IMG/VR virus record: IMGVR_UViG_3300037041_000666 | Coordinates: 1 to 44,219 of that record | DNA length: 44,219 bases | Origin: a virus | Taxonomy: Duplodnaviria > Caudoviricetes | Strand: one strand, 5' to 3' | Shown: one piece after another, positions 6,976-44,219 of the stretch | How the letters are laid out: each line of letters opens with the position of its first letter | Numbering within the stretch: position 1 is the stretch's first letter | Made by a program: the position numbers and the translations under genes | The notes under the pieces: generated by a model | Told to the model about the DNA's origin: nothing | What the model saw: the letters and a program-made list of their open reading frames with translations, nothing else | Database searches by the model: none

Positions 6976-6987
6976 GGAATAATAATA

Positions 6988-28884: not shown

Positions 28885-29063
28885 TGTTTTCTCCAATTAA
28901 TTCTAACTTCAAATTCACCCATAACAATATCTGCCATCTTTATACCCATTTGGTTTGATTCACAGTATGTTACAAGCTCATCATAAATAGCTTCTTGTAA
29001 ATATTCTAAATCTGCGTACTCACATTTCTTATAAAATATCGGTAAGACCATCATTTCGCTCAT
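28881..29063 (-). CDS. Hypothetical protein
   Basis: GAGGAG RBS, coupled at both ends. Confidence 0.6.
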   Translation of the reverse strand: MSEMMVLPIFYKKCEYADLEYLQEAIYDELVTYCESNQMGIKMADIVMGEFEVRINWRKQ

Positions 29064-29218
29064 TATTCTATCTCCTCAAAATCTTCGTCTAAAGTTCTCT
29101 GATTGAGCAGATCGATCTGCCCATCATCGTAACCTGTCTTGTAAATCAACTTAATGGAATCGAGCAACGAATGCCCACCCGCTTTCCAAAGTTCGTAGCA
29201 CTCTTCATCTGTCAGCAT
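29063..29218 (-). CDS. Hypothetical protein (LTDEE paralog)
   Basis: MLTDEE...Y..GY.D, shared with the next ORF. Confidence 0.55.
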   Translation of the reverse strand: MLTDEECYELWKAGGHSLLDSIKLIYKTGYDDGQIDLLNQRTLDEDFEEIE

Positions 29219-29433
29219 TAGCGATTCCTGTTCTTTTGATACTCGTACCACATCGCGTCTCTCTCCTCATTGGTATCAAGCGCATCCATATCCTTAACCA
29301 AACGTCTCAACCCATTATCGTTATTGATAACCGCATCCTGATAACCACGTTCGTATGCAGCTTGAACCAACTCTCTAAAGGACAGCTCGCTAGTCCAAAT
29401 AATATTGATTTCCTCATCAGTTAGTTTCTTCAT
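29218..29433 (-). CDS. Hypothetical protein (LTDEE paralog)
   Basis: GAGGTGG RBS; MKKLTDEEI...Y..GY.D. Confidence 0.55.
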   Translation of the reverse strand: MKKLTDEEINIIWTSELSFRELVQAAYERGYQDAVINNDNGLRRLVKDMDALDTNEERDAMWYEYQKNRNR

Positions 29434-29592
29434 TTTCCACCTCAATTTTATGCGTACATGCTTCCGGATTGAAAAAAGAATACGCGTATCGACCTTCGCC
29501 TTCATCTAAACCAATTGTCAGAAAACGATGACACGTGTCTCGTTGCTTACAGTCTTCTCCAGAACATCTGGAGACATCCCTTGGTAAGGGTT

Positions 29593-29904
29593 TCATTTAT
29601 CTAAGAGCGTGTTACGCTCATCCTTATTTCGTTCAACCAACATTGCATCAGCCCATTCATAAGCCTCTTTAACGATTGTCAATTTACCAATAGGCGCATC
29701 ATAACTATCTATTATTTTCTGCATAGCCAAACCAGCAAAATGATCCCGCAAGCTGATACCGTTGTGCTTTTTTAAAGCACTAATTTGCGCTTCCAACTTC
29801 ATTATTTTATCTTTGTAAAATTCCTTCATATTCTCTTTTTCTTCCTGTGAAATGTGCACTCCTAATCCCCTTTTAATGGCTTCATCTGACGCTTTAAAAC
29901 TCAT
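29593..29904 (-). CDS. Conserved phage protein (LRDxFA...AY..ADAML family)
   Basis: SLRDHFAGLAMQ...AYEWADAML. Confidence 0.65.
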   Translation of the reverse strand: MSFKASDEAIKRGLGVHISQEEKENMKEFYKDKIMKLEAQISALKKHNGISLRDHFAGLAMQKIIDSYDAPIGKLTIVKEAYEWADAMLVERNKDERNTLLDK

Positions 29905-29999
29905 TTCTTCTTCCCCGCTTCTATAATTTCTTCAATGGTGCGCTTACAGCCCGTGCAGACACCGTTCTCTAACCAGCATTTGTTAATACACTTACTCAT
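29901..29999 (-). CDS. DUF1289-like Cys-rich mini-protein, not in ORF track
   Basis: MSKCINKC...VCTGCKRTIEEI; coupled at both ends. Confidence 0.6.
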   Translation of the reverse strand: MSKCINKCWLENGVCTGCKRTIEEIIEAGKKK

Positions 30000-30228
30000 C
30001 GTTTCTTTTCTCCAAATCTTTAACAACCGACTCCCTATAATTTTTAAGAAACTCTATATACTCATTAAAAGCTTCATAATTATCATCTAGTTGTATATGC
30101 GTATTGTAATCAGTGGCAATTATTATCTGTGCTATCGCCCGCCAAATATGAGATACATTTACACCATCACACATATCGGCAATTTTTACAAACAACTCAT
30201 TAACTTCATCACTATTATTTCTCATCAT
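29992..30228 (-). CDS. Hypothetical protein
   Basis: GGAG RBS inside the upstream gene's end block. Confidence 0.6.
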   Translation of the reverse strand: MMRNNSDEVNELFVKIADMCDGVNVSHIWRAIAQIIIATDYNTHIQLDDNYEAFNEYIEFLKNYRESVVKDLEKRNDE

Positions 30229-30670
30229 CTACTCCTATTCCGTGTAATTCTTCAGTTTTTCGCATCAAATAATATATTTGCCAAAGTCTCACATTAGAAA
30301 AATCAGCATCTTTTTTGATAATATCTACTTCTTTAGATAAAATAGAATCACTCAAAGGTTCACGGGTTGGAGGTGATGTGTAGAGTGGTATTGAATTTCC
30401 ATAATCTACATGATGCAGATTGCCGTATGTTCTGCCTTTCCACGCTACGGGTTTGTTTGCCAATACTTCACTGACAGCATCATTAAACGTCTGTGTTGCT
30501 GATGATTCTCTGAGTTTTAGCGTAGCTTGCTCAGGTTGGGCGAGTAGGTTTTGTATTTCTTTAACCGTATCTTCGATTTGAGTTATCATTTCAAACTCTG
30601 TTATCACTAGATATTCAGCGCACATGTACGCTAAAATTGTTTTAAGCAACTCTCTTTCTTTACTCATCAT
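30215..30670 (-). CDS. MSKERE modular-family protein
   Basis: MSKERELL, LLAQPEQ, PVAW, PLYTSPPTREPLSD, HGIGVDDE. Confidence 0.75.
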   Translation of the reverse strand: MMSKERELLKTILAYMCAEYLVITEFEMITQIEDTVKEIQNLLAQPEQATLKLRESSATQTFNDAVSEVLANKPVAWKGRTYGNLHHVDYGNSIPLYTSPPTREPLSDSILSKEVDIIKKDADFSNVRLWQIYYLMRKTEELHGIGVDDEK

Positions 30671-31124
30671 CTACTCCAATGCCGTGTTGTTGTTCTGCCC
30701 ACTTAACACCGTTATAAAAACTCATGTCTTTTGAGTTCCTACTAGCTTCTTTTATAGCAAGGTTGCTCAAAGGCTTGCGTGTCAAGAATAACATTGTGTC
30801 TTCAACACCCTTGCCGTACCACCATTTACTGCTTTGCTCAGGCTCACGGGTTGGTGGCGATGTGTACAGTGGTCGGATATTCTCTACATCATTTACATCA
30901 TTTACATCATTTAAAACAAGAGTCAGGTCAGTAGTTAGATGGTTTCTAGATTTATAAGCGTGTAGAACCTCTTGATTTCTTTCGACAGGTATATTCCAAT
31001 CATACATCCAAGCTACAGGTTCTTGCTCAACTTTTGCATAACCTTCACGTTGCTCAGGTACTTTACACTTCCACCCTAGTTTGTCCAACACTTCTTGTAA
31101 GTCTTCTCTCTCACTCATTGACAT
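30660..31124 (-). CDS. MSKERE modular-family protein
   Basis: MSERE, EQEPVAWMYDW, PLYTSPPTREP, RKPLS, HGIGVDDE; internal NDV x3 repeat. Confidence 0.75.
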   Translation of the reverse strand: MSMSEREDLQEVLDKLGWKCKVPEQREGYAKVEQEPVAWMYDWNIPVERNQEVLHAYKSRNHLTTDLTLVLNDVNDVNDVENIRPLYTSPPTREPEQSSKWWYGKGVEDTMLFLTRKPLSNLAIKEASRNSKDMSFYNGVKWAEQQHGIGVDDE

Positions 31125-31280
31125 ATCCCCTTAATTTCTAAAACCGTTCTATTGGCTCGCATCCCTTCAATTTGACAATTGTGTTTCTCACGAATAGTAC
31201 TCTCATAAGATAAGGCGCATATGATTGCACCGATTAACATGAATGTTATTACTATAAAATTTAACATCGCTTTCCCTTCT

Positions 31281-31868
31281 TCATCCATAAATTTCCCCTA
31301 ATCGTCTTAGTTCCAAGTTTCTCAAATGAAGTTCTTTGTTGTTCTTCATAAACATAATCAGACTATGCGCCATCGTGTGCGGTCTGAACACGAACTGATC
31401 TTTCTTCCTACCGTTTATCTTATGAAAAGCCAGTGCTTCTTTAGCGAACGGATACCAGTCGTTGATCTGCTGGCGACAGTACAAAAAGATCAACCCATTA
31501 GTGTGTACATGTTTAGGCATGCGATACCGTTCGTTCTTAGCGATACCTTCTATGTAAGTCAGCTTCACACCCAGATCATCAGCGATCTCTTTACGCGTCA
31601 TGTACACTTTATCAATTGATTTGGTGCGTACAGGCGCATACTTTTCAGCAAGTTCTTTGAGAGAACTCTCTTTCTCAGCCTTCTTTTTAATAGATGCCTT
31701 CTTGTTATCAATCGCCCAGCGTTCTTTCAACTTTTCTTTATTCGCCTCACGATACGCTTTGTTCTTTTCGATCACGCTAGCCGCATTGCGTTTATACCAC
31801 TCCCGTCTCGTTTGTTTGTACTTCTCTGCTGTTTCTTCAGGTGTTAATTTTGGTTTTTTAAACATCAC
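31281..31868 (-). CDS. Basic protein with excisionase/AlpA-like HTH
   Basis: Charged helical N-terminus then YMTRKEIADDLGV...MPK. Confidence 0.55.
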   Translation of the reverse strand: MMFKKPKLTPEETAEKYKQTRREWYKRNAASVIEKNKAYREANKEKLKERWAIDNKKASIKKKAEKESSLKELAEKYAPVRTKSIDKVYMTRKEIADDLGVKLTYIEGIAKNERYRMPKHVHTNGLIFLYCRQQINDWYPFAKEALAFHKINGRKKDQFVFRPHTMAHSLIMFMKNNKELHLRNLELRRLGEIYG

Positions 31869-31975
31869 ATCGTCCTAACTTTGTAATATTGCTAATATCA
31901 ATAGCGTTAACATGCCAAGCGCACAGACTGCTGCGATAAATTGTTTTTCATTTTCTCTGTTCATAATTTTTACTC

Positions 31976-32000
31976 AAAAAAAATGCCCCATTGCTGGGGC
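31976..32000 (-). terminator. Rho-independent terminator
   Basis: GCCCCA-GCAA-TGGGGC followed by A and T8 on the minus strand. Confidence 0.85.
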
Positions 32001-32019
32001 GAGTTGAGGGATAGTTCGT

Positions 32020-32259
32020 TTAGTCGTACAGATTCATAATCTGCTCTTCAATACTGCTTAGCGTCTCTTCGTCGAGTACATCTACCAGGTTAACAACCCA
32101 ATCATCTTTACCGTAATACACGTTAATGATATCGATGTCTGAGAACTCTGTTAAAACTTGGTCATCATAATCTTCTTCAGCATTTTCCACGTCCTGTGTA
32201 AATTCAAACTCAACATCCATGTCAACACCTGCCACTATTACGTTAGTTGAATACGTCAT
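32020..32259 (-). CDS. Acidic hypothetical protein
   Basis: Very acidic; architecture similar to 38863-39201. Confidence 0.6.
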   Translation of the reverse strand: MTYSTNVIVAGVDMDVEFEFTQDVENAEEDYDDQVLTEFSDIDIINVYYGKDDWVVNLVDVLDEETLSSIEEQIMNLYD

Positions 32260-32262
32260 ACC

Positions 32263-32394
32263 TTACCCTTGAACTACTCTAAATTCTTGTTTCTTGGCGT
32301 ATCGAGCGTACTTACGCTCTGGTTCATAATCGATCAACCACCAACCGTTTTTCTCAAGCGCATGACACTGCGCTACAAATTCTTTCTTAGTCAT
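32263..32394 (-). CDS. 43 aa hypothetical protein
   Basis: GGAGG RBS, TAATG coupling. Confidence 0.5.
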   Translation of the reverse strand: MTKKEFVAQCHALEKNGWWLIDYEPERKYARYAKKQEFRVVQG

Positions 32395-32897
32395 TATAAC
32401 CCTCCATTCTGTTTTTCAACAGCTTTTTTATACAACTCGTCTTGACGTTGCTTACTTTGATTAGTGATTGGTTGCTTCGATGCGACAACCGGAGCAACGT
32501 CTTCTATGCACGGTCTACCCACACGTTTGAACGCAGCGCGTACATCCGCATTACCACACATGATTTCTTTAGCCACTTGAGCGTCACCCATATTGCGGAT
32601 CTCTCTAGCGTTCAACCGTCTCACACAATCAGAGTCTTCCCATGTTGTGCCGAGAGCGATACTGCCACCAGAGAACCCTGCACCCATGCTGGTGCTACCC
32701 ATGCACACGTCATTAAACGACGAGGATAAACCTGGTGCTACACCAACTCCCACCGCTCTGCTCGGATCAGAACCTGTCGATGAAGACAGGTTTCTTGCAT
32801 CAACGACGGTGTTAGCCGTCACTGGTATGTTGGTTGACTGTGTCGCATCGGCAAACGCTAAACAAGGTAGCAGTAACAACGGTAGTATCTTAATCAT
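32394..32897 (-). CDS. Secreted 4-Cys protein
   Basis: Signal peptide MIKILPLLLLPCLAFA; AP...D.C.GS.S.G...G.T.ED.DC pattern. Confidence 0.7.
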   Translation of the reverse strand: MIKILPLLLLPCLAFADATQSTNIPVTANTVVDARNLSSSTGSDPSRAVGVGVAPGLSSSFNDVCMGSTSMGAGFSGGSIALGTTWEDSDCVRRLNAREIRNMGDAQVAKEIMCGNADVRAAFKRVGRPCIEDVAPVVASKQPITNQSKQRQDELYKKAVEKQNGGL

Positions 32898-33297
32898 GAT
32901 CGTGACCTGGTGTGATAGTTGACGTAGCGATCGGATAATCAACCACGGTTGTTACGACAGTACCCGTAGAAATCGCAGATACGCCTTGTGTTGCGCCATG
33001 CGAATCAACAATGTTCCATGTCGGTGACACATAACCATTACCGGTTGCTGTAGAAGCAGCTGTGCCAGTGATCGAATTAGCGATGGTTGGTACAGATCCT
33101 GATAACGAAAGTGTTGACGAACCAGTCAGGCTTGCAGTGGAAATTTGTGACTGCGCTTGACCTACGCCAGCTGATACGTTCGTACCCACCATTACGGTGC
33201 CGTTCATTACAGAAGCGACGTTGGCAACAGGTGCCGGTTGTGTTGCAAAAGCAGTTGAAGTTAGCAATAAAGATGCAGCTAAAGTTAAATGTTTCAT
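32890..33297 (-). CDS. Secreted Ser/Thr/Ala/Gly-rich protein
   Basis: Signal peptide MKHLTLAASLLLTSTAFA; nearly charge-free mature part; AGGA RBS. Confidence 0.7.
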   Translation of the reverse strand: MKHLTLAASLLLTSTAFATQPAPVANVASVMNGTVMVGTNVSAGVGQAQSQISTASLTGSSTLSLSGSVPTIANSITGTAASTATGNGYVSPTWNIVDSHGATQGVSAISTGTVVTTVVDYPIATSTITPGHDHD

Positions 33298-33427
33298 TTG
33301 TTTATTCCTATTAAATTAAAATTAAAAAGTGGTTAAGGGTTTGTCTTGCGAAGGGCTATCGGTAGTTAGTTCCGGCCTTGCCAACCTTCGACGTGGTTGT
33401 TACGTTTTTGTGTTCCCTTGAGGAAGA

Positions 33428-33465
33428 ATTATACGGAAAGTTTAGTATTAGTAAACTTTTTATTT
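33428..33465 (-). promoter_or_regulatory. Putative sigma70 promoter
   Basis: AAATAAAAAG-TTTACT-16 nt-TATAAT. Confidence 0.55.
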
Positions 33466-33479
33466 GCGCGTAAGGTGTA

Positions 33480-34832
33480 TTATTTTTCAAAGTGTTTATT
33501 TTTCAATGCGTTAAGTAGATTAGCTTGCGTCACATCTTTGGCAGCGAGTGCGGTTATCAATCTTTCGTCGATGGTATCTCTTGCTACTATATGTATAATA
33601 CGCACAGGTCGAGTCTGACCTTGTCTATACACACGCCCATTGAACTGTTGATAAAGTTCGAGTGACCAGTTGAGACCAAACCATACGATGATACCACCGC
33701 CCTGTTGTAAGTTGAGACCAAATGCGGCTGACTGTGGGTGCGCAAGCAATAACGGTATCTCTCCACCGTTCCATCGTGTGATTGTATCTGGACTCTTATC
33801 AAGCTGTTGCGCTTGTGGGAAGCGTTTTTGTAGACGCTCAAGATCTGTTTTAAAATTATATGCAACTAAAATATTCTCCCCTTCGTTCTGCTCAATGATA
33901 TCCGCAAGCGCATCGAGTTTAACTGAGTGTATTTCTGCCCAGTTTTTAAACTCTGAGGTATAGATTGCCCCAACCGAATATTGAAGCAACTTATTTGCAA
34001 GAACAGCTGCGGATATTGCTTCTACCACATCACCAGAATCGAGTTCTAAAAGAAGATGTTTTTCAAACTCGTCATATTGTTTTTTAACTTTAGGGGGTAG
34101 CTCTACATACTCGGTCAAATCGATACGCTCAGGTAACTCTAGATAATCCTCTGCACTCATAGACAGAACCATATGTTGGATCGCATTGTGTATCTGTATA
34201 TCAGCACCCACTCGTGGTGTGTATTTATAACCCATGTAATCAGGTTCAAAGAAGCGTTGTTTGTACGCGGTCATGGTGCGACCCAATGCGATCCCACTAT
34301 CTAATAGATAAATCTGTGCCCATAGATCGAGCAGACCGTTCGAGGCTGGTGTGGCAGTCAGACCGATAAAATAGTTAGTGAACGGTAAGATTTTCTTTAA
34401 ATACTTATGACGTTGTGACGCAGAGCTCTTTAGACTTGATAATTCATCAACTACCACCATATCGAAAGGCCACTTCTTACCGTACAATTTGACCAACCAC
34501 GGGATGTTTTCTCGGTTGATGGTATACACGTCTGCTGTACGATGTAACGCGGTTAGACGGTCTTTTTCTGTACCGGTACACACTTGTACTTTTAAGTGTG
34601 TTAAGTGTCGCCAGTTAGCCGCTTCAGCATGCCAAACTGAGTTAGCTACTCGGAGCGGTGCTATAACGAGTACCTTGTGGACGTTCATCTGATCCTGAAG
34701 ATCGGAAATAGCCGTAAGTGTTATCGTGGTCTTGCCTAATCCTAAATCTAACAGTAAAGCACAACGCTTTTTCTCTTTGATAAACTCGACCGCTTTGGTT
34801 TGATACGCATGCATATCACTTTTCAAATGCAC
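33480..34832 (-). CDS. SNF2-family DEAD-like helicase
   Basis: LGLGKT, IAPLRV, VVDELS, LTATP, GLNLQ, QQFNGRVYRQGQ; GGAGGA RBS before GTG 34832. Confidence 0.9.
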   Translation of the reverse strand: MHLKSDMHAYQTKAVEFIKEKKRCALLLDLGLGKTTITLTAISDLQDQMNVHKVLVIAPLRVANSVWHAEAANWRHLTHLKVQVCTGTEKDRLTALHRTADVYTINRENIPWLVKLYGKKWPFDMVVVDELSSLKSSASQRHKYLKKILPFTNYFIGLTATPASNGLLDLWAQIYLLDSGIALGRTMTAYKQRFFEPDYMGYKYTPRVGADIQIHNAIQHMVLSMSAEDYLELPERIDLTEYVELPPKVKKQYDEFEKHLLLELDSGDVVEAISAAVLANKLLQYSVGAIYTSEFKNWAEIHSVKLDALADIIEQNEGENILVAYNFKTDLERLQKRFPQAQQLDKSPDTITRWNGGEIPLLLAHPQSAAFGLNLQQGGGIIVWFGLNWSLELYQQFNGRVYRQGQTRPVRIIHIVARDTIDERLITALAAKDVTQANLLNALKNKHFEK

Positions 34833-35079
34833 GAGCGTCCTCCATTGAGTTGATAACGCGCACATCACAACCGAGCGCACGTCTACGCTCATGATCGAGT
34901 TCTTGTAACGGTGTTGCATGTTTCCCTTCGTTCTTCAGTTCAACGAATATGATTACACCACCAGGTAGCGTTACGAGACGATCAGGTACTGACCTTCGTC
35001 CGCTTATGAACTTTTCAGCCATACCACCCAATTCTTTAACTCGCTTGACGAGTGCTTGCTCAATGTGTCGTTCAAGCAC
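34816..35079 (-). CDS. VRR-NUC nuclease
   Basis: E..IE, VPDRLV, FVELK, LQ. Confidence 0.9.
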   Translation of the reverse strand: MLERHIEQALVKRVKELGGMAEKFISGRRSVPDRLVTLPGGVIIFVELKNEGKHATPLQELDHERRRALGCDVRVINSMEDARAFEK

Positions 35080-35242
35080 TTAATTCACCTATTAGGTTAA
35101 TTAACCGCACCTTTAAACTTTCAGGCATTGTGTTTTCCTCATTGAAGAACTCGTAAGATATTTTCCCTTCCGGTATCCAATCCATAGAATAATAAATATC
35201 ATTCATCTCTTTCACATGTTCTTTAAACTTAGCTCTATTCAT
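35072..35242 (-). CDS. 56 aa hypothetical protein
   Basis: Fills the gap between polymerase and VRR-NUC, overlapping both. Confidence 0.5.
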   Translation of the reverse strand: MNRAKFKEHVKEMNDIYYSMDWIPEGKISYEFFNEENTMPESLKVRLINLIGELSA

Positions 35243-37013
35243 ATCCAACTTCCTTTAGTAATTCGTTAGCCATACTGATGTACACCGGATAGTCCACATC
35301 TTGCGGGAAGATGTCTGGTAGATCCATCAAAGGTCGTGCGCCACCTGACATCGGCACTCGGTTTGAATTCTTCGCGTAGTGTATGCAGATCTCTTTATCA
35401 ACATCACGCGAGTAGTAAAAGCGTACCGCTTTACCGAGGTAACCACCTTGCCATGTTGCACCGCCCGTCACTTTGCGCACTGTGACGAACTGAGTGATGT
35501 CGTTACACTCCATAATGGTTTGCTCGACAGGAGTGTTGCGTGCCACGCAATACGCAACCGCTTTCTGTACGATCGAACAGTTCGGGTTCTTAGCAAGGCC
35601 TGTTGATGCGAAAACCCCTTTACCTTTAATCTTACCATCGGTTTTAACAGCTATGTAGTTATTAACGTCGCGGTTTGCCATACAAGTATAGTCTGTTTGC
35701 TCAAGGATATAACCTGTTTCGAGCATCCAATTAAACCCTACTTCATGCGCAACATCTAACATCTCGTTTGGACCATAACAAACAATTCCGTCCGTATTGG
35801 CAGACATAACAGCAACACCTTTATCTTCTAAAGATTCGATCAACATGAGCAAAGCAAACTGACCGGTCAACGTTGTTTGTAATAATAATTCCGGTGCATA
35901 AAGCATACTATACTTTGAAGCAAGCTTCCCGAAGGACCCGTTTAAAAAAATCTTAAGTACGTCAGCAGTGACTTTATCACCTGACTTTTTAGCTTCAACT
36001 CTTTTTGTTACAAAAGATTTGTAAAGTTTTAAGAATGGTTTACCCATAGTTTTGGGTGCTATTTTTTGCTGTAAGATTATACTCGGATAGTAGCTCACAC
36101 AATCAAAATCTGAGATGAACCAACCTTCCTTGTAGGGAATGTACTGCGACTTCTCACATGAGTGTAGACCACCAATACCCATCTGATACTTGCGACCACC
36201 AATCTTGATGTCTTCTTTCTTTAGCCAGTCTGGTAGCACTAGCGCACCGTTGATACCTAACTTAAACGGTTCTTTGATAACACGGGCTAAGATATTGTTT
36301 AACTGCTCGCTCTTGAAGGAGACGATCTCAGGGTCTTGATAATAAAACTTCGCATCATCAGCAACGGTAGGTCGTGAGGGTTTCTTACCGGTGATCTTTT
36401 GCAGTTCGCTGGAGATAACTGTCTCAGCAATCTGCGCATCTGACTTAGAGCGCAAATCCATACCATACTGCTCAGTCATCGACTCGCGTAGCGTGATCTG
36501 AGGGATGAGCTCTTGATAGAGTTCTTGTGTGGTCTGTAGGTCGTTCTCGCAATAGTTCCTTAGCTCAACCCGTTGCTCAGGTGAGATCAGTGTAAACGGT
36601 TCGATAGGTAGGTCTTGCAGTTTCTTTGAGTGTAGCCTTCCACCGTAGATCTTCAAGGAAGACATACCAGGTGCTACTTCGATAAGATCAATATGATCCC
36701 ACTTTGGGCAGGGTAGATTGTTATCTTGGTAAGTCCGATACGCGGATCGGTTTGATCCGATGATCGAGTCGCATAAGCGTTTTATGTGCTTATTGTTCCA
36801 TCCACAGAGCGCTGCCACGATGATCGGTAAGTCGAAACTATTCCCGTTGAAGCTGATCGTGGTGTTCTTACGCATGATATTGGACAGAACTGCTAGATCT
36901 AGCGGATGGTCTTCGTACAACTCAAGGTGGATAACTTTACCAGTCTCTACACATTTAGCCGCGAAGAGAAAGTAGTTGGCGTAGATCTCTGTATCGATTA
37001 TTATCTTTTTCAT
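35235..37013 (-). CDS. DNA polymerase, B-family-type with 3'-5' exonuclease
   Basis: Exo motifs DTE, FNG..FD, Y..ND; polymerase motifs DFDCVSYYPS, KIFLNGSFGK, ANTDG. Confidence 0.85.
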   Translation of the reverse strand: MKKIIIDTEIYANYFLFAAKCVETGKVIHLELYEDHPLDLAVLSNIMRKNTTISFNGNSFDLPIIVAALCGWNNKHIKRLCDSIIGSNRSAYRTYQDNNLPCPKWDHIDLIEVAPGMSSLKIYGGRLHSKKLQDLPIEPFTLISPEQRVELRNYCENDLQTTQELYQELIPQITLRESMTEQYGMDLRSKSDAQIAETVISSELQKITGKKPSRPTVADDAKFYYQDPEIVSFKSEQLNNILARVIKEPFKLGINGALVLPDWLKKEDIKIGGRKYQMGIGGLHSCEKSQYIPYKEGWFISDFDCVSYYPSIILQQKIAPKTMGKPFLKLYKSFVTKRVEAKKSGDKVTADVLKIFLNGSFGKLASKYSMLYAPELLLQTTLTGQFALLMLIESLEDKGVAVMSANTDGIVCYGPNEMLDVAHEVGFNWMLETGYILEQTDYTCMANRDVNNYIAVKTDGKIKGKGVFASTGLAKNPNCSIVQKAVAYCVARNTPVEQTIMECNDITQFVTVRKVTGGATWQGGYLGKAVRFYYSRDVDKEICIHYAKNSNRVPMSGGARPLMDLPDIFPQDVDYPVYISMANELLKEVGYE

Positions 37014-37050
37014 TTTATGTTTCCTTAGCGGGTAGCGCTAGTGTAATAAC

Positions 37051-37075
37051 AAAAAGCCACCTGGGTAGGTGGCTT
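37051..37075 (-). terminator. Rho-independent terminator after the SSB gene
   Basis: AAGCCACCT-4 nt-AGGTGGCTT plus T run on the minus strand. Confidence 0.8.
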
Positions 37076-37094
37076 AATTCTGATCGGTCAGACT

Positions 37095-37619
37095 TTAGAA
37101 TACGTCGTCTTCGTCTGAATCGAATGCGTCGAAATCGTTTAGATTACCTGAAGAACCATCTCCAAAAGGTTGACCATCCTTGAAGAACTGAACGCCTAAT
37201 AAGGTCGCGTTGATGCGCTTACCCCAACTGTTGTCCTGCCCCCAGATCTCGATACTCGCATTGACATAGCAACCTGAGTAAGGACGACCATCATCTTCGG
37301 CCAGTGGAGATTTATCACGATCGATAACCAGAGGGCGTTTCTTAGAGCTGGCTTTTAAAGAGAAGTGATTAGCGTAACCATCATAGTCAACCAAATCACC
37401 GTCACGAAGACACAACTTCTCAGGGCCAACTTTAGCACCCTTAAGATTGGTCTTGATCAGTTCTTTGATCTGAGCTTGGATCGATTCGATCTGGTCAGCT
37501 TGCGTATCTTTGTCAAGCAGGAAAGTACCTTCGAAACCTGTCTCTTCACCGCTGAATACAGCTTTTTTGAATAGTGAAGGGAAAGACAGACGTACGTTTT
37601 TTAAGATTATTTTAGCCAT
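37095..37619 (-). CDS. ssDNA-binding protein (DUF2815, gp2.5-like)
   Basis: NVRLSFP.LF, LRDGD, YSGCYVN, GVQF.KDG, acidic tail ending in F. Confidence 0.9.
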   Translation of the reverse strand: MAKIILKNVRLSFPSLFKKAVFSGEETGFEGTFLLDKDTQADQIESIQAQIKELIKTNLKGAKVGPEKLCLRDGDLVDYDGYANHFSLKASSKKRPLVIDRDKSPLAEDDGRPYSGCYVNASIEIWGQDNSWGKRINATLLGVQFFKDGQPFGDGSSGNLNDFDAFDSDEDDVF

Positions 37620-37661
37620 TTTATTTTCCTTTTAGGATTGATTTAAGTTTTATTTTTACAG

Positions 37662-37707
37662 CGTGTTAAGTATAACTTAACTTTTATTCGGATGTCAAAT
37701 TTTATTT
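37662..37707 (-). promoter_or_regulatory. Sigma70 promoter, copy A
   Basis: TTGACA-18 nt-TATACT with AT-rich UP element; palindrome over the -10. Confidence 0.75.
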
Positions 37708-37832
37708 TTCTCCTCGATCTGCTCTAAGATTATTGCGATGATCTTCTCCGCGTAATGCTGGCGATCCTTGGAGCTGTTGGTCGGTTTTTGATACAGGTCG
37801 AGCAAGTTTTGTATATCTTTAGTTAGTCTCAT
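37695..37832 (-). CDS. 45 aa hypothetical protein
   Basis: GGAG RBS; MRLTKDIQNLL... Confidence 0.45.
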   Translation of the reverse strand: MRLTKDIQNLLDLYQKPTNSSKDRQHYAEKIIAIILEQIEEKNKI

Positions 37833-38102
37833 TTAATCTCCCATTGTTAGTTCATATTGACGTTGTGCGTCTAAGAAGCGTTCAGCGTCAATCTGATCGT
37901 TCTTCATTTGTTGTCTTGCTTGTTGCAGTTCGTTCAAGACCTGGATGCGTTGCATATTAGCGATCGCATGTTCAGCCTCTTGTTGTTGTTCGAGCGAGTT
38001 ATAACCATGGTAGCGATACCCGTAACCATAATCGGAGTCATCAACAGCATGGGTGTTTGTATGTACACACATTGTGAGTATAAGTGCGATTAGTTTTTTC
38101 AT
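37833..38102 (-). CDS. Putative exported protein
   Basis: Signal-like MKKLIALILTMCVHTNTHA; ATGA coupling. Confidence 0.55.
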   Translation of the reverse strand: MKKLIALILTMCVHTNTHAVDDSDYGYGYRYHGYNSLEQQQEAEHAIANMQRIQVLNELQQARQQMKNDQIDAERFLDAQRQYELTMGD

Positions 38103-38863
38103 ATTGCACACCCACAACCACCATATTCTTGAGAATCTTCTAATGACACAGAATTTGTTTCTAAATACTGTTCACGATATTGTTTTAAAGTCAGTCTAAA
38201 CAATTGTTTATCAACCGTCTTTTTTAAGAAAGGATATGTTCCGCCTATTGCGTCATATACTTCTTGTTCTTTTATTTCAAACTCAGCATATCTCTCTGGA
38301 CTTGCTTCATATAACGCTTTGTAGTGTCCTAACCCTGCTTTGATACAAAACCCTCCACAATTATTATGACCAAGTTTCCAGTTATATAGTCTCGGTCTCT
38401 TTATTCCAAACTTTTCACTAAAATCTTTGTTTATTATTTTCCCCTCTTCAACTAAAGTGGATCTATACACCCAAGGAGTCATTCTTTGTTTTAAACGAAC
38501 CAATCGATGTTCTTCTGAATAATCTATACCAACATGCATTTCAGCTTGTTCTGAAGTATACGTGGTAGTGAACCAATTATTTAGAGGTTCTCTTTTTAAA
38601 AGTTTTGAGCAAGGATCTATTCGACTATTACCCATAAACTTTACATCTTTAAATATTTCAAAAGGTGTTCTTCCTTCAGTTATGGTTACCAGTTCACAAT
38701 CTAAAAATTTCACACACTCATTTTTAAAACGATATAAGTCTTCGTCCTCCATCAATGTGTCCGCAAAAAGAAGCTGGACATTTTCTTTACCAAATTTATC
38801 CACGCAAGATTTTGCTTCTGCAAAACTACCCATACCTCCTGAAAAACTTATAACATGTTTCAT
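38099..38863 (-). CDS. PAPS-reductase-like (PP-loop) protein with Cys clusters
   Basis: ISFSGGMGS PP-loop, FADT..ED.D, CS..LK, HNNCGGFCIKAG, GGCGC. Confidence 0.75.
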   Translation of the reverse strand: MKHVISFSGGMGSFAEAKSCVDKFGKENVQLLFADTLMEDEDLYRFKNECVKFLDCELVTITEGRTPFEIFKDVKFMGNSRIDPCSKLLKREPLNNWFTTTYTSEQAEMHVGIDYSEEHRLVRLKQRMTPWVYRSTLVEEGKIINKDFSEKFGIKRPRLYNWKLGHNNCGGFCIKAGLGHYKALYEASPERYAEFEIKEQEVYDAIGGTYPFLKKTVDKQLFRLTLKQYREQYLETNSVSLEDSQEYGGCGCAI

Positions 38864-39201
38864 TAGTAATCTCCTACGTCTTCTTGTGACACTTCGAGAT
38901 AGTTCCAGACAAGGTCTTCCAGTCTGTCATTGTTGACCAGGTCCTCAATCAGAACAGACTGTTCTGGTGTGATCGCAATCGCGTTACCGTGCTCGTTATA
39001 CACCTTAGTGATAACGAGGTTCTCTACTTCAACGCTTGGTAGTTCTTCGGGTTGCCACATTGTTCCTGCGTAACCTCTGCTCGCCCAGACCTCAACTTCA
39101 AGAACGAGCGAAGAGATCTCATCGGCAAGGTTGAGACGTTTACCGACGGTGTTGTCGAGCTCTTGCTCGGTGGTCAACATGCAATCTATTTCTATTATCA
39201 T
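38863..39201 (-). CDS. Acidic hypothetical protein
   Basis: AAGGA RBS downstream of promoter copy B. Confidence 0.6.
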   Translation of the reverse strand: MIIEIDCMLTTEQELDNTVGKRLNLADEISSLVLEVEVWASRGYAGTMWQPEELPSVEVENLVITKVYNEHGNAIAITPEQSVLIEDLVNNDRLEDLVWNYLEVSQEDVGDY

Positions 39202-39232
39202 TTTAGTTTTCCTTTTAGGTTTTGTTTTAAGT

Positions 39233-39278
39233 CGTGTTAAGTATAAGTCAACACCTATGGCGTGTCAAACTTTTATTT
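39233..39278 (-). promoter_or_regulatory. Sigma70 promoter, copy B
   Basis: TTGACA-17 nt-TATACT with the same flanks as copy A. Confidence 0.8.
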
Positions 39279-40401
39279 AGTCAAAGTCAGAGATATCTCC
39301 AGACACAATTTGTGCGCGGGGGTCGTTTTGGTGTGCCAAGGTTGGTTTGCCTTGGGTTTTGCTGATCAGGCCGTTCAGCAGTGCGGCTTTCTTCTTGCCT
39401 AAAGCCTTTTCCGCGGCTGGGGCGGTGATTAGTTTCTTCGGTGCGAAGGCCTTGTCGCCTAGCTCTTCAGTGAGTATCCGTTCAGCTGTTTGCTCATCTG
39501 ACCATGATCTAGTCGATCTACCCACCACCAACTTGTAACCTGGGAAGTCTAAACCTTCTTGGAGACGTTCGAACGCAAGATCCTCGATCGCTTCAAGCCA
39601 GCTGATGATGAGTTTCTTATTCTCTAAAGCGAATCTCAGGTCTCTGGTTGAGAGTTTGTCCGGTGACTTAGGCGCTACTGTTGCATCAGAGAAGTCGGCC
39701 AGCAGTGCGCTCTCAGTTAGATCCATGAGTTCTCGACAGGTCGCTTTAGCTTTGCAAAATTTACAACCGTCTTCTGAAGCTGTACGTTTAGGGTTTGGTA
39801 GATCACATAACGCTGCTCGTTCCTTAACCCATTCTCCCCAAGCGTATAACCTTTCTGGTGTGGTTTCCCAAACAGAGATATGATCTAACCTAGGTTGGTG
39901 TATATGACAAACCACTCGTTCTATATCGTAAAGAAAACCATAATCAGACAATGCACCCAATGCGTAAAGCTTCGCTTGTGGATTGTCATCAGCGTCCACT
40001 TTTACACCTTTCCCGAATTTCAAATCTATGATGTGGAGTGTGTTTCCTTCAATAATTATACCGTCTGATGTACCAAACCCGTCAGGCACAAAATCTGAAA
40101 AGTTTACCCTTTGCTCGATAAACCGTTTACCGGTAAACTGATCGTAGTAGTCGACATATTCTTGCACATAGAGTGCCATTTCAGAGGTCACTATCCAATC
40201 ATCGTCTGGTAGTTTTTGATCCACATAACTCATTGCCGATCGACCATTCAATAGGCAAAGTTCTCCTAAAGCGTGTGCTGCAGTACCCTCAGATGCAAAA
40301 TTTGAGGGTTTTTCAATAATCCCAGCTTCAGCTTGTATTGATCCTGAGCAGACCAGCCATTTGTGTGCGCTACTTGCGCTTAATCTTGCGTGTGCAGACA
40401 T
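39277..40401 (-). CDS. DUF2800 Cas4-like PD-(D/E)XK exonuclease
   Basis: HARLSASS..W..C, EGTAAH, FGTSD, IIDLKFGKG, NPQ..LYA, C.FC....C. Confidence 0.9.
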   Translation of the reverse strand: MSAHARLSASSAHKWLVCSGSIQAEAGIIEKPSNFASEGTAAHALGELCLLNGRSAMSYVDQKLPDDDWIVTSEMALYVQEYVDYYDQFTGKRFIEQRVNFSDFVPDGFGTSDGIIIEGNTLHIIDLKFGKGVKVDADDNPQAKLYALGALSDYGFLYDIERVVCHIHQPRLDHISVWETTPERLYAWGEWVKERAALCDLPNPKRTASEDGCKFCKAKATCRELMDLTESALLADFSDATVAPKSPDKLSTRDLRFALENKKLIISWLEAIEDLAFERLQEGLDFPGYKLVVGRSTRSWSDEQTAERILTEELGDKAFAPKKLITAPAAEKALGKKKAALLNGLISKTQGKPTLAHQNDPRAQIVSGDISDFD

Positions 40402-40412
40402 GTTTGTAGTCC

Positions 40413-40904
40413 TTATGTTGAAAAAGGATGATATATTTTTTGTGCTTCTTTATAACGAGCTATCGCTTCATCAATATCATCATAATAACCTAAGAAAATA
40501 GGTTTTATATTTAATCTCAATTGAACAACCCATTTTTTTCTTCGAGTTTCCCAAGAAATACCTTTATATCCAGATGTGTTAGTTTTTTTAAGACCTACAT
40601 TTTGCGCATTTTGTGAACGAGAAGCTTCTCTCAAATTAACAAACCTATTATCGTCTTTTATACGATTAATGTGGTCAATAGATTTTGTAGGCCAATACCC
40701 ATACATATATAACCAAACCAACCTATGGGCACGATATGAAACACCATCAACACCTATACGAATATATCCTTGTGATAGATTTCCAGCAACATCACCAATT
40801 TTTCTAGGTGACCCTTGTGCCATTTTTAACCTGGTAAACAAACCTGTTTCTGGATCGTAATGTAAAAGTTCTTTCAATCTTTCTTGGGTAAGCTCATTTT
40901 TCAT
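40413..40904 (-). CDS. Free-standing HNH homing endonuclease with AP2-like domain
   Basis: LTQERLKELL.YDPETG, AHRL, IDHINR..DDNR..NLR, NTSGYKG. Confidence 0.9.
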   Translation of the reverse strand: MKNELTQERLKELLHYDPETGLFTRLKMAQGSPRKIGDVAGNLSQGYIRIGVDGVSYRAHRLVWLYMYGYWPTKSIDHINRIKDDNRFVNLREASRSQNAQNVGLKKTNTSGYKGISWETRRKKWVVQLRLNIKPIFLGYYDDIDEAIARYKEAQKIYHPFST

Positions 40905-40917
40905 AATTGTAACCAAT

Positions 40918-41031
40918 AAAAAAAGCCGATCTACTTCTGTTCAGACGGGGCTAAAATTAGACCACCAGAAGTAATAATCGGCTTTATTTAAATTCTATTA
41001 TCGGGTCTGACTCCGAGAACTAACTATATCA
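40918..41031 (-). promoter_or_regulatory. Promoter plus structured attenuator-like leader of the HNH gene
   Basis: TGnTATAGT, small hairpin, then a long hairpin with T7 just upstream of the ATG. Confidence 0.6.
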
Positions 41032-41054
41032 CGGGAGCCTTATTAAAACAATAC

Positions 41055-41417
41055 TCATGTTTTAGTTTCCTTTTCCAGTTCTCTCAGTCTACGCTTCTCT
41101 GCTCGGTCGTCGGCTTTCCACTGCCGGTACCGTGCGTTACGATCGTAAGCCGCTTGCTGGAACTCGTTATACTCGATCTTCAGATTATCCCACACGTAAA
41201 ACGTATCGCTGAGTAAATTGAGTTGATGTTTAACGACCGCGCAGTCATCTTCACCGAAGATCTTGGGCTTATACTCGGTTAAGTTCTTACAGTTACGACC
41301 CTTGGCAATAACGGTTGCGACCATCGCGACAGCAATAGCGTCATCTTGAACGCTGTAGTTACGGATAATGATCCGTCTAGGCTCGAAGTCTGATTTTTTC
41401 TTTTCATTTTGGAACAT
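41055..41417 (-). CDS. Hypothetical protein
   Basis: AGGAG RBS. Confidence 0.6.
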   Translation of the reverse strand: MFQNEKKKSDFEPRRIIIRNYSVQDDAIAVAMVATVIAKGRNCKNLTEYKPKIFGEDDCAVVKHQLNLLSDTFYVWDNLKIEYNEFQQAAYDRNARYRQWKADDRAEKRRLRELEKETKT

Positions 41418-41418
41418 G

Positions 41419-41706
41419 TTATTCTCCTATGTTGTGTTGTTTTGGTGGTGCAAGATATAGCGGTCGGACATTTTCTACCTCATTTGACACATATCTTAGA
41501 TCGGTAGTCAGATGGTTTTTAGAGGTAAACACATGCTGAACCTCTTCACTTGGTGTTTTCCAATCATACATCCAAGCTACAGGCTCATTGGATTGCTCAG
41601 GTTGGGCGAGTAGTTCTTCAATAGCAAAATATAAATCACATTCGCCCATATGAACCATCTCTAAAACAACCAAAGTTTCTTCTAGTAACTCTCTTTCTTT
41701 ACTCAC
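41419..41706 (-). CDS. MSKERE modular-family protein
   Basis: MSKERELL, LLAQPEQ, EPVAWMYDW, PLYLAPP, HNIG. Confidence 0.75.
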   Translation of the reverse strand: MSKERELLEETLVVLEMVHMGECDLYFAIEELLAQPEQSNEPVAWMYDWKTPSEEVQHVFTSKNHLTTDLRYVSNEVENVRPLYLAPPKQHNIGE

Positions 41707-41902
41707 TTTGTATTACTCCATATTTAGCCAGTTCAATAAAATAAACAGCTTCTGAAATAGTCATCTTTGATGATCGCGTAATCAACTTTTCATTTTCGTC
41801 AATACCGATTACCAAAACCTTTTTAAAATCTTTTCTTTTACTATGATCCAAACACTGTTCTACTGTCATACTGGCGCTAGCTGGCATTTCAATTATCTTC
41901 AT
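41699..41902 (-). CDS. Hypothetical passenger protein
   Basis: Coupled to both neighbours; VLVIG.DE. Confidence 0.6.
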   Translation of the reverse strand: MKIIEMPASASMTVEQCLDHSKRKDFKKVLVIGIDENEKLITRSSKMTISEAVYFIELAKYGVIQSE

Positions 41903-42275
41903 CAGCTACTCCAATACCGTGTGCTTTCTCAATAGCTCTTACAAAAGTATTTAGACTAGCAACAAATAAATGATCTTTACATATCTCCCCTATCTCCTTA
42001 TCACTCAAAGGCTCGCGGGTCGGTGGTGCTAGGTAGAGCGGGCGAAGATTTCTCATGCAATACTCTTCTTCTACAATCGGTGGATATTTTCCGTTTTTTA
42101 CAGATGTCCATTCTTTGCCACCAATTTCTTCCCACTCATACATCCACGCCACAGGCTCTTGCTCAGGTTCAGGTTGGGCGAGTAGGTTTTGTATCTCTTC
42201 CATAAGCTCCCATCCATAAGGACCGTCTTCTAGTGCTATTAAAGACTGTCTTAACAACTCTCTTTCTTTACTCAT
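41889..42275 (-). CDS. MSKERE modular-family protein (all blocks present)
   Basis: MSKERELL, LLAQPEPEQEPVAWMY, PLYLAPPTREPLSD, HGIG. Confidence 0.8.
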   Translation of the reverse strand: MSKERELLRQSLIALEDGPYGWELMEEIQNLLAQPEPEQEPVAWMYEWEEIGGKEWTSVKNGKYPPIVEEEYCMRNLRPLYLAPPTREPLSDKEIGEICKDHLFVASLNTFVRAIEKAHGIGVADEDN

Positions 42276-42534
42276 TGTCTGCTCCAGTTATACCGTGTTG
42301 TTCAATTGTTCTGGTAAACATCAATATATAATCCCAAAGGGTCATATCTTTACCTTTTACGATGGTCTTTGTATTAATTGTTTTATCCCATAACTCTAAA
42401 ATCTCCTCATCACTCAAAGGCTTACGTTTAGTTGATGGTGCTAAGTAAAGAGGCGCCCATAATATCGTGTCACTGCAATCTACTGTAGTAACATCCCCAG
42501 TGATCGCGTTAATCCAAGCTAGTGGTTTACTCAT
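42268..42534 (-). CDS. MSKERE modular-family protein lacking the first module
   Basis: MSKPLAW, PLYLAP, RKPLSDEEI, HGITG. Confidence 0.75.
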   Translation of the reverse strand: MSKPLAWINAITGDVTTVDCSDTILWAPLYLAPSTKRKPLSDEEILELWDKTINTKTIVKGKDMTLWDYILMFTRTIEQHGITGADNE

Positions 42535-42643
42535 CGTTTACTCCAAAGTGTTTAATTGCTTTTTCAAATAAGTACGGAAAGCTGAGACATACCCACGATA
42601 ATCCTACTGAGCCAACTGTAGCAAACCATTCAAAAAGACTCAT
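42527..42643 (-). CDS. 38 aa membrane peptide with family end block, not in ORF track
   Basis: MSLFEWFATVGSVGLSWVCLSFPYLFEKAIKHFGVNDE. Confidence 0.55.
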   Translation of the reverse strand: MSLFEWFATVGSVGLSWVCLSFPYLFEKAIKHFGVNDE

Positions 42644-42984
42644 TGTCCTATTCCAGTTATGCCGTGTGCTTTTTCAATTGCTCTTACTAACTTAAAATAA
42701 GGTTCATTATCAACATCACCATCTTCATCAAGAAACCCGTAGTCTAATGATAAATCCCTTTCAATACTGTCAATGGCAAATCCTGCTTTGTAACCAATTT
42801 CAAAAATCTCTTCATCACTCAAGGGCTTACGCTTTGGTTGGGCGAGGATTCGCTCGATCTTATTAATACTCTCTATTAAATCTACTAAATCATAATCACC
42901 TGAATTTCTTACATTTGCCCAAACATACCTTAATTCGTGCATCCACTCTAATGCTTCTGATAAAACTTCTCTTTCTTTACTCAT
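42640..42984 (-). CDS. MSKERE modular-family protein lacking the middle module
   Basis: MSKEREVL, ILAQPKRKPLSDEEI, HGITG. Confidence 0.75.
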   Translation of the reverse strand: MSKEREVLSEALEWMHELRYVWANVRNSGDYDLVDLIESINKIERILAQPKRKPLSDEEIFEIGYKAGFAIDSIERDLSLDYGFLDEDGDVDNEPYFKLVRAIEKAHGITGIGQ

Positions 42985-43052
42985 CGTCTTTCTCCTGCGA
43001 ACTTGCGTTGTAAGATTTTCATATCCTTTATTAACTCTCTTTCTTTACTCAT
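42981..43052 (-). CDS. 23 aa MSKERE mini-ORF
   Basis: MSKERELIKDMKILQRKFAGERR; GGAGG RBS. Confidence 0.5.
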   Translation of the reverse strand: MSKERELIKDMKILQRKFAGERR

Positions 43053-43387
43053 CACCACCTCCAAGTTATACCGTGAGCTTTTTCTACTCTTCTTATCCAT
43101 CTGATGACGTATCTGACTTGATGATCGTCCATATTTTCAACAATCCCTTCTTTATCAAGAGCATATATAGCATCTTCTGTTAAGGGTTTGGGTGGTGCAA
43201 ACTCATTGACTCCTTGTCTAAACCCTTTCCCATACCATTCAATCTTTGTTTCTGCTAAAAGAGGCTCAGGCTCTTGCTCAGGTTTGGCGAGTAGTTTATT
43301 TATATCAATACATAACTCATTACAAGCTACTCCTTTGTATTCAAACTCATCTAAGCATCTTTGTAGTAATTCTCTTTCAATGCTCAT
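43052..43387 (-). CDS. MSKERE modular-family protein
   Basis: MSIERELL, LLAKPEQEP, APPKPLTE, HGIT. Confidence 0.75.
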   Translation of the reverse strand: MSIERELLQRCLDEFEYKGVACNELCIDINKLLAKPEQEPEPLLAETKIEWYGKGFRQGVNEFAPPKPLTEDAIYALDKEGIVENMDDHQVRYVIRWIRRVEKAHGITWRW

Positions 43388-43572
43388 ATTACCTCCTCAA
43401 CTAAATCACGGTCGTCAAAGTCTGCCAACGTCAATGATATTCTTCCACCAATCGTATAACTGGTGTGCGGTTTATGTATTGTCCAATAAAAGTCTCCACC
43501 ATTTAATCTAACCAGTGGACCAACTATTTCCCCATCTCTTCTTTTATAATAATTACCCTCTATAATTTTCAT
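43384..43572 (-). CDS. Hypothetical passenger protein
   Basis: G.YY.RRDG..VGP...DLVEEV. Confidence 0.6.
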   Translation of the reverse strand: MKIIEGNYYKRRDGEIVGPLVRLNGGDFYWTIHKPHTSYTIGGRISLTLADFDDRDLVEEVI

Positions 43573-43826
43573 AATTCAATACCGTGAAATTCTTCCGCAA
43601 ATCTTACCCCTGCTTCAAAACCATAATCCCATTCTGTAGATCGTCTGCTAAGTTTTAATGTTTTACTTATCTCGGCTTCAGTTAAAGGGCTGCGTTTAGT
43701 CTGCTCAGGTTTGGCGAGGAGTTCCTTTATTCTTTCTGGTAAATCTCCACAATGCTCAATGTTAAGTCCTAGCGGATCAAAATATTCTAAAACTTCATTT
43801 AGTAGCTCTCTTTCTTTACTCATCAT
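43569..43826 (-). CDS. MSKERE modular-family protein
   Basis: MSKERELL, LLAKPEQ, PLTE.EI, GVRFAE..HGI. Confidence 0.75.
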   Translation of the reverse strand: MMSKERELLNEVLEYFDPLGLNIEHCGDLPERIKELLAKPEQTKRSPLTEAEISKTLKLSRRSTEWDYGFEAGVRFAEEFHGIEL

Positions 43827-43844
43827 CTACCTCATTTTCTTTAC

Positions 43845-44030
43845 TCATAATAAACTTTTTTGATTTTTATCTAATTTCCAATTAAACCAATGTCCACATT
43901 TTGTACAAAACTTTAAGTTTAATGATCTCATTTCACCAAGATATTTATTTCCACATTTTGGACAATATTTAGTTGATGTATTCCATCTGTGGTGAAATAA
44001 TAAATATTTTATTTTATCAAACATTATCAA
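43845..44030 (-). CDS. Zinc-ribbon protein
   Basis: CPKC...SLNLKFCTKC. Confidence 0.6.
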   Translation of the reverse strand: MIMFDKIKYLLFHHRWNTSTKYCPKCGNKYLGEMRSLNLKFCTKCGHWFNWKLDKNQKSLL

Positions 44031-44035
44031 ATCTC

Positions 44036-44062
44036 AAAAATGGGTGGCTTTTACACCACCCA
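44036..44062 (-). terminator. Rho-independent terminator
   Basis: TGGGTGG-8 nt-CCACCCA followed by T5 on the minus strand. Confidence 0.75.
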
Positions 44063-44071
44063 ATATTATTA

Positions 44072-44218
44072 TTATTTAAATGGATTTTTTTTGATTCCAT
44101 CAGATGGTGCTTTAGAACCAGCTGGCTTATAACCTTTTATTTCATTTCCAGGGAATGCATCATCTGGAGGACGTACAGTCAATTTGATAGATAATGGAAT
44201 TGCATGTAATTCAGAACT
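44072..44218 (-). CDS. C-terminus of a DUF669-like (SSB-type) protein, truncated by the window end
   Basis: SSELHAIPLSIKL...NEIKGY...NPFK. Confidence 0.55.
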   Translation of the reverse strand, partial: SSELHAIPLSIKLTVRPPDDAFPGNEIKGYKPAGSKAPSDGIKKNPFK

Positions 44219-44219
44219 A

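Follow-up and report, generated by a model that had tools for sequence, protein, structure and literature searches.

Whether phage mosaicism arises from short conserved linkers or from random joins followed by selection is still debated (PMC3945230, PMC3029335). In the modular theory, short conserved DNA at module borders serves as the crossover site (PMC3029335). Boundary sequences are described as not found at most mosaic borders (PMC3029335), and traces of homology as flanking about 30% of mosaics (PMC3945230). Related systems include the mosaic Ea22-region genes with their acidic C-terminal domains (PMC10834534), DoMo in Type I and IIG restriction specificity genes, where domains are swapped, lost, gained and moved between loci (PMC3077401), PeSL cassettes (PMC2839356) and the gp38 adhesin of T4-type phages (PMC3157838); PMC8614690, PMC4776307 and PMC2896510 belong to the same literature. 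Here, we analysed a family of short genes in the virus record IMGVR_UViG_3300037041_000666 (44,219 nucleotides (nt); the whole 44.2-kb record, completeness 54%; hereafter, the window). These genes are built from three variable modules (V1, V2 and V3) set between linkers, in the order A-V1-B/C-V2-D/E-V3-F.

The shuffling of these modules works like known linker-mediated mosaicism, but it is intragenic, multicopy and very widespread. Short DNA-conserved sequence at the borders of non-homologous modules, the mark of boundary-sequence recombination, is present here. Unlike in the described boundary-sequence cases, the window linkers lie inside reading frames, follow a fixed three-slot grammar, are repeated within one genome and occur in thousands of protein clusters. 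As in DoMo, variable domains are flanked by conserved coding repeats and are gained and lost, but these are phage genes with three structurally different slots, and none of the eight window members matched a restriction-modification family in Pfam, NCBIfam or PADLOC. The gp38 adhesin, with hypervariable segments between glycine-rich motifs, likewise combines a conserved frame with interchangeable segments, whereas the window family is multicopy and, by its position, not a virion gene. PeSL cassettes share the shuffling mediated by repeats in hyperplastic regions; in contrast, the window linkers are coding and lack the promoter and terminator stem-loop. Compared with integron- and shufflon-type systems, a linked tyrosine or serine recombinase (0 of 5 records) and structured or inverted sites are missing. 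No description of the three-slot grammar or of its silent-site signature was found in the literature searched, in which subscription journals and older P22 work were thinly covered.

Module shuffling and exchange pools

The modules of this family are shuffled among phages. A preliminary description of the window had proposed recombination-driven combinatorial shuffling at linkers conserved as DNA, and incongruent modules, synonymous constraint in the linkers and, in a closely related strain, a different module join were all found. Searches with the protein encoded at 41889 gave 639 relatives among 1,016 candidates, and in the 120 relatives listed, modules of the window genes recur in other combinations. 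The wider set of 204 viral loci plus the window yielded 417 hits to a hidden Markov model and 338 unique genes, part of which could be parsed into modules. Modules were compared within their own slot type only (V1 with V1, V2 with V2, V3 with V3), and the loci and backbones compared are contig fragments.

Pairs of genes with an identity of 95% or more in one module often fell below 60% in the other, namely in 11 of 18 V1/V2 pairs, 10 of 13 V2/V3 pairs and 139 of 145 V1/V3 pairs. The full three-slot parse succeeded for 82 of 252 proteins, which represent 71 combinations drawn from 52 V1, 33 V2 and 38 V3 alleles. Among these 82, a single V2 allele occurs with 14 V1 partners, and another with 9 V1 and 6 V3 partners. 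In a set collapsed to 263 genes, near-identical tracts had 372 internal ends, of which 251 were located inside a linker or no more than 6 nt away from one, compared with 32% expected; these ends are distributed over linkers B to F, and 121 of the 372 fall outside the linker mask. The carriers of common modules are frequently different phages. In 257 pairs of loci of at least 8 kb with a common module tract, 127 pairs share less than 2% and 182 less than 10% of the remaining DNA. For instance, the relative G003 differs in the type of its portal, terminase and capsid and in addition encodes Sak4 and RecE, and the relative G005 has a different polymerase.

In metagenome runs X1-X3, the summed contig depth at 42080-42187 and 43052-43375 reached about 5 to more than 100 times that of neighbouring bins, which does not represent copy number. 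This excess indicates that other phages of the same samples carry these modules.

The family extends far beyond the window, and 13,355 clusters (50% identity) were retrieved with its profile. When the B/C peptide was sought irrespective of codons, the scan returned 114 distinct junctions from DNA of 34-66% G+C, with at least two further dialects, and one of the proteins obtained matched E. coli phage genes weakly. The proteins of phages JEP4 and SKA5 are members of phrog_60/660, which are P22-like or lambdoid accessory proteins, annotated as Ea22 protein in SKA5 and fused to DUF551 in JEP4. The JEP4 protein aligned to the family (hhalign 92.8%, E 3.9e-7, 70 columns), and the homology covers the N-terminal helix pair, the EPVAW motif, V2 and the PLY motif. 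It is remote (best member E 2.3e-5), and the weak matches among 67 members were to phrog_660 in 34 and to phrog_60 in 32 cases. Both groups show the same shuffling. In contrast to the phrog_60/660 genes, the window members lack DUF551 (PF04448, 0 of 8; present in the JEP4 protein) and Ead_Ea22 (PF13935, 0 of 8; absent too from the SKA5 protein annotated Ea22), their third slot is the E-V3-F helix pair, they occur in up to eight copies per genome in phages without integrase, and they have had no recent DNA exchange with the JEP4-like pool. In single-sequence scans of the eight window members, no PHROG, NCBIfam or PADLOC family exceeded the cut-off (E 0.001-0.05). Pfam matches to LcrV and YopT were far below the cut-off and were treated as noise.

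A third scan gave 123 matches, 57 of them with a PLY-like motif, and 50 of 51 unique genes could be parsed. These 50 genes form the JEP4-like pool, with 36 combinations from 18, 13 and 26 alleles. The second pool is thinly sampled (57 genes), and its three V2 alleles that were seen twice have different neighbours each time. Recent sharing was detected inside the pools in 352, 21 and 256 pairs, while recent tracts between pools are almost absent (2 of 26,563, 0 of 13,413 and 0 of 5,151 pairs). The family thus forms nearly separate exchange pools. The cultured lake phage DSL-LC05, with a gammaproteobacterial host, encodes a 340-residue member of another dialect (L352, 1883-2905) and may offer an experimental handle.

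Silent-site conservation of the linkers

To score the linkers as DNA, only genes whose adjacent module was less than 60% alike were compared, and the use of the same codon was counted where the residue was the same. From A to F, identical residues are encoded by the same codon at frequencies of 0.74, 0.73, 0.63, 0.56, 0.63 and 0.52, compared with 0.30-0.39 predicted from codon usage; the value of 0.74 for A comes from protein-selected loci only. Identical runs of control orthologues gave 0.37, 0.44, 0.50 and 0.65 at 30-45, 45-60, 60-75 and 75-90% identity, respectively. Linkers flanked by modules less than 60% alike are therefore at the level of orthologues that are 75-90% identical (0.654). 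Among the paralogues of the window itself, the same codon was used in 192 of 314 cases, against 0.32 expected. Accordingly, the earlier claim of conservation at the DNA level holds, with synonymous constraint beyond the expectation from codon usage.

The fixed codons include rare ones. In linker B, Leu is encoded by CTC in 77 of 99 cases, compared with 2% in modules, and linker Arg by CGT in 57 of 81 cases, compared with 8%. The codon AGA carries little weight, because it is common (60%) inside modules. The C core keeps GTG for Val (106 of 114) and GAG for Glu (110 of 114) across 34-66% G+C, and in the JEP4-like pool it keeps GTG in 12 of 14 and GCG in 11 of 14 cases. Other linker positions vary by pool. 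The B/C and D/E linkers resemble one another and have a GAGCCT core in common.

Part of the conservation of A and F is due to the ribosome-binding site and the overlapping stop and start codons of translationally coupled genes. For B, C, D and E there is no such plain cause. Hairpins in the linkers were not unusual compared with synonymous variants (mean z -0.9 to +0.7), and hairpin or attC-like sites were dismissed because the linkers fold no better than these variants. Terminator-like hits over B are on the antisense strand and were likewise rejected. Rfam gave no match in window 29,000-44,219, and promoter-like sites numbered 5 compared with 10.4 by chance.

The two gene arrays, recent rearrangements and surroundings

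All eight genes and two mini-open reading frames (mini-ORFs) previously assigned to one grammar do follow it, and the eight genes are encoded by the minus strand at the positions given earlier. The 18-nt A motif has seven matches with at most three mismatches, compared with a mean of 0.08 in 100 shuffles, and 50 of the 125 repeated 16-mers of the window are confined to the two clusters. In cluster 1, the first gene (30660..31118, 152 residues) parses as A-V1-C-V2-D-(short insert)-E-V3-F, and the other (30215..30667, 150 residues) as A-V1-B-(insert)-C-V2-D-E-V3-F. Over 153 nt, the V3 of the latter matches a gene from a different type of podovirus (G003/L010) at 84% identity.

Cluster 2 contains the canonical A-V1-B-C-V2-D-E-V3-F gene (41889..42275, 128 residues) and five genes in which modules are skipped. 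Those skips named beforehand are borne out by the parse: the gene at 42640..42984 (114 residues) joins B to E without V2, that at 42268..42534 (88 residues) begins with MSK followed by C and has no V1, and that at 41419..41706 (95 residues) runs A-V1-B-C-V2-D and then into an F-like end without V3. C and D are also missing from the genes at 43052..43387 (111 residues, A-V1-B-(insert)-E-V3-F) and 43569..43823 (84 residues, A-V1-B-E-V3-F, without V2). The former is a very widespread allele, with 23 unique genes in its 90% cluster, and the V1 of the latter is found at 98% identity over 127 nt in L020. At 43052-43075, the 43052 gene ends in a shifted F tail (ending WRW), which occurs in 3 of the 23 unique cluster members; the other 20 have Gly-rich tails. 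The variable segments had been described as mostly unrelated, which is correct for most, but V2 of the 30660 and 41419 genes are homologous (70% over 84 nt, family D10).

Neighbouring genes of the arrays are adjacent or overlapping. A GGAG ribosome-binding site is contained in the F tail, often with the stop codon overlapping the next start. Similar junctions occur at three unrelated small genes within cluster 2, all on the minus strand: a 67-residue gene (41699..41902; phrog_11040, weak) with the same GGAG and overlapping-start junctions, a 38-residue open reading frame (42527..42643) with family-type junctions at both ends, and a 62-residue gene (43384..43572) without family match. Across relatives, each of the 62 multi-copy loci has its family members in the same orientation. 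The minus-strand mini-ORF at 43816..43848 (10 residues) joins an A start to an F-type tail. The other (42981..43052, 23 residues, minus strand) is a chimera of a V1 start known from G003 (L010) and the tail of an unrelated gene known from L025 and the relative G001, and its junction consists of nine shared bases of microhomology outside any linker.

G001 is a complete 65-kb syntenic relative whose core segments are mostly 68-88% identical to the window. At the two syntenic loci, G001 has four and one family genes, whereas the window has two and six. The G001 orthologue of the 30660 gene has only the start of V1 in common with it. Another recent change was seen in run X2, from another study, where a near-identical strain carries the alternative join that had been looked for, a fusion of the 30660 gene to the V3 of 30215. 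A 412-nt contig joins 30840-31144 to 30240-30355, with five other letters, and its depth of 24.3 is like that of the flanks of the X2 strain. The skip of 484 nt, which may be a gain or a loss, is in frame and in register with two minus-strand copies of repeat family D4, a D/E linker at 30347..30388 and a D/E-like linker at 30831..30872, spaced 484 nt apart. The longest exact run between these copies is 11 nt, which is probably too short for a 31-mer assembly artefact. Uncovered stretches of X2 were counted only where a contig spans them. Within V2 of the 30660 gene, the window has a 9-nt tandem repeat (30885-30902) of which the X2 strain has one unit fewer.

The plus strand of the window encodes podovirus-type adaptor and ejection genes, and its minus-strand arm encodes Thy1, dCTP deaminase, a helicase, a family-B-like polymerase (phrog_1252), a Gp2.5-like protein that binds and anneals single-stranded DNA, and an exonuclease. 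The nearest polymerases among cultured phages are at most 51% identical to that of the window. Runs containing cluster 2 are from freshwater, sediment, river and estuary. The single family locus in GTDB genomes is on a contig of a metagenome-assembled genome and was not accepted as an indication of the host.

Several other features of the window were observed. A 1,932-residue ejection-type protein (20722-26520) has SLT and LPD39/DarB-like regions as well as short tandem repeats (near 22410-22480 and 22478-22764). An exact 20-nt repeat (28595-28614 and 29061-29080) is located at two gene starts with a ribosome-binding site and is another candidate junction linker. A second small paralogue family (LRDHFAGLAMQ motif, phrog_2201) adjoins cluster 1, with one copy at 29593-29904 and two in G001 (6676-6993 and 7462-7665). 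Two genes with signal-peptide-like starts (32394-33297), one matching phrog_20531, have counterparts at 73-76% in G003 and G004, phages that differ in other respects, and are missing from the corresponding place in G001. A 63-nt intergenic direct repeat (37619-37681 and 39190-39252, 75%) precedes the annealase gene and the 38863 gene and is possibly a phage promoter. Neither the PAPS-reductase-like gene (38099-38863, phrog_424) nor the HNH endonuclease gene (40413-40916) aligned in the syntenic region of G001.

Origin and possible role of the shuffled proteins

The system had also been called recombinase-free. This is right in so far as no integrase or resolvase was present in five records, three of them at least 90% complete and the window itself 54% complete. 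It does not hold for recombination functions in general, as the window encodes on its minus strand a Gp2.5-like annealing protein, a candidate recombinase (37095..37619; phrog_112, E 2.5e-48), and an exonuclease as its candidate partner (39277..40401; phrog_69, E 6.5e-109), and microhomology joins occur outside the linkers. Since no site-specific recombinase, special structure or single crossover point was found and an annealase and exonuclease are at hand, we consider it probable that relaxed homologous recombination acts at the linkers, with concerted evolution keeping the dialect of each pool; a dedicated cassette machine is less likely. Phage annealases recombine diverged DNA, as shown for Rad52-like enzymes (PMC3945230), and recombination activity of Sak4 and Gp2.5 is treated in PMC2896510. 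Crossing over in the short coding linkers would reshuffle the three slots across phages. The enzymes may be the phage's own annealase and exonuclease, Sak4/RecE in the case of G003, or functions of the host; exchange would take place in co-infected cells or by unequal crossing-over within an array. Because B/C resemble D/E, out-of-register crossovers would give skips and duplications. The likeness of silent sites could result from every exchange passing through the linkers, so that only alleles near the pool dialect stay in exchange, and the ribosome-binding site and stop/start overlap would add constraint at A and F.

Several points weigh against relaxed recombination at the linkers. Strict four-gamete quartets are few among the 82 parsed proteins (0, 1 and 1 for the three module pairs), so that the signs of reciprocal exchange are for the most part star-shaped sharing; alleles are undersampled, and the gene sets were collected by similarity to one query. 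The p-values for the enrichment of tract ends are overstated because pairs are not independent, and breakpoints that survive would likewise be concentrated in the linkers if selection favoured intact domains. Several linkers measure 15-25 nt, compared with the 30 bp quoted as the Red-beta minimum (PMC3945230), and the effect described in that paper is for Rad52-like and not Gp2.5-like enzymes. Moreover, the C core retains its codons in pools between which recent modules are hardly ever shared, and continuing exchange by itself does not easily account for this.

This constancy across pools makes a selected cis-element the main rival, although an unlikely one. The linker DNA would then be a recombination hot spot or protein-binding site, and the family an evolved diversity generator instead of a by-product of homology. 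The use of rare codons in linkers and the constancy of the C core, over 34-66% G+C, in the JEP4-like pool and between pools with almost no recent common tracts, agree with such an element. On the other side, the linkers have no unusual hairpin and no Rfam match, tract ends scatter over B, C, D, E and F with one third outside linkers, other linker positions differ by pool, and a site-specific recombinase is absent from all five records. Illegitimate or microhomology joins could instead occur everywhere, with selection keeping those at domain borders and linker likeness reflecting protein constraint and descent. Illegitimate recombination is the standard alternative (PMC3029335), and the 9-nt chimera, the 121 tract ends outside linkers and modules that look like separate folding units in the predicted model would suit it. 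Protein constraint does not fix silent sites, however, and linker codon identity matches that of 75-90% orthologues (0.654) despite modules less than 60% alike, while the X2 join keeps exactly to the register of the linker repeat; we therefore regard such joins as a poor explanation with little chance of being correct. Simple duplication and divergence in one lineage, or chimeric assembly of repeats, is highly improbable. Tandem same-strand arrays (62 of 62 multi-copy loci) and the breaking of metagenomic contigs at linkers point that way, but module discordance already contradicts it, with near-identical modules beside unrelated neighbours in independent contigs. The JEP4-like pool repeats the pattern, and run X1, which may be the source sample, spans the window junctions with long zero-mismatch pieces.

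Purifying selection acts on modules of all six classes (dN/dS 0.16-0.30). Of the 338 family proteins, 93% are net acidic. The model of the 41889 protein comprises a helix pair, a three-strand sheet and a second helix pair (pLDDT 77.5, pTM 0.39), and replaces an earlier one made from eight paralogues only (pLDDT 63.5). It shows predicted domains that are local folds without fixed orientation. The PDB sequence search gave no match, and the fold search no Z of 5 or above (best 4.4), the top matches in the viral library being uncharacterised phage proteins. Comparison of V2 with the T7 Gp2 and phi29 p56 folds (Z 3.0-3.9, root-mean-square deviation 2.6-4.0, 43-51 aligned) was below significance and tied with unrelated chains. 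In the ESM Atlas, the top feature matches (0.89) are unnamed, and the first structure row, a DUF551-containing cluster (TM 0.40), is a lead only. RNA runs X20 and X22 contained linker-sized pieces only, which are not evidence of expression, and the share of RNA data among the runs with cluster 2 was too small for use. Their location amid replication genes points to early expression, and the proteins may exert their effect at the beginning of infection through contacts with host proteins. As a guess, which we hold with somewhat less than even confidence, they are beads-on-a-string binders of host proteins, with V2 as the most likely specificity element. More ambitiously, and rather doubtfully, the linkers might be an evolved DNA-level recombination code across proteobacterial phages that maintains community-wide, antibody-like repertoires of three-domain host-protein binders for counter-defence or takeover, with the lytic and temperate phages of each host community drawing on their own module pool.

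With identifiable linkers that bear a silent-site signature and have E. coli phage counterparts, the question of linkers versus random joins becomes testable by synonymous recoding. The grammar gives an architecture to about 13,000 protein clusters that PHROGs, Pfam and NCBIfam leave unnamed at E 0.001, and whose chimeric make-up probably prevents them from grouping. Should the modules turn out to bind defence proteins of the host, the family would be a combinatorial counter-defence reservoir.

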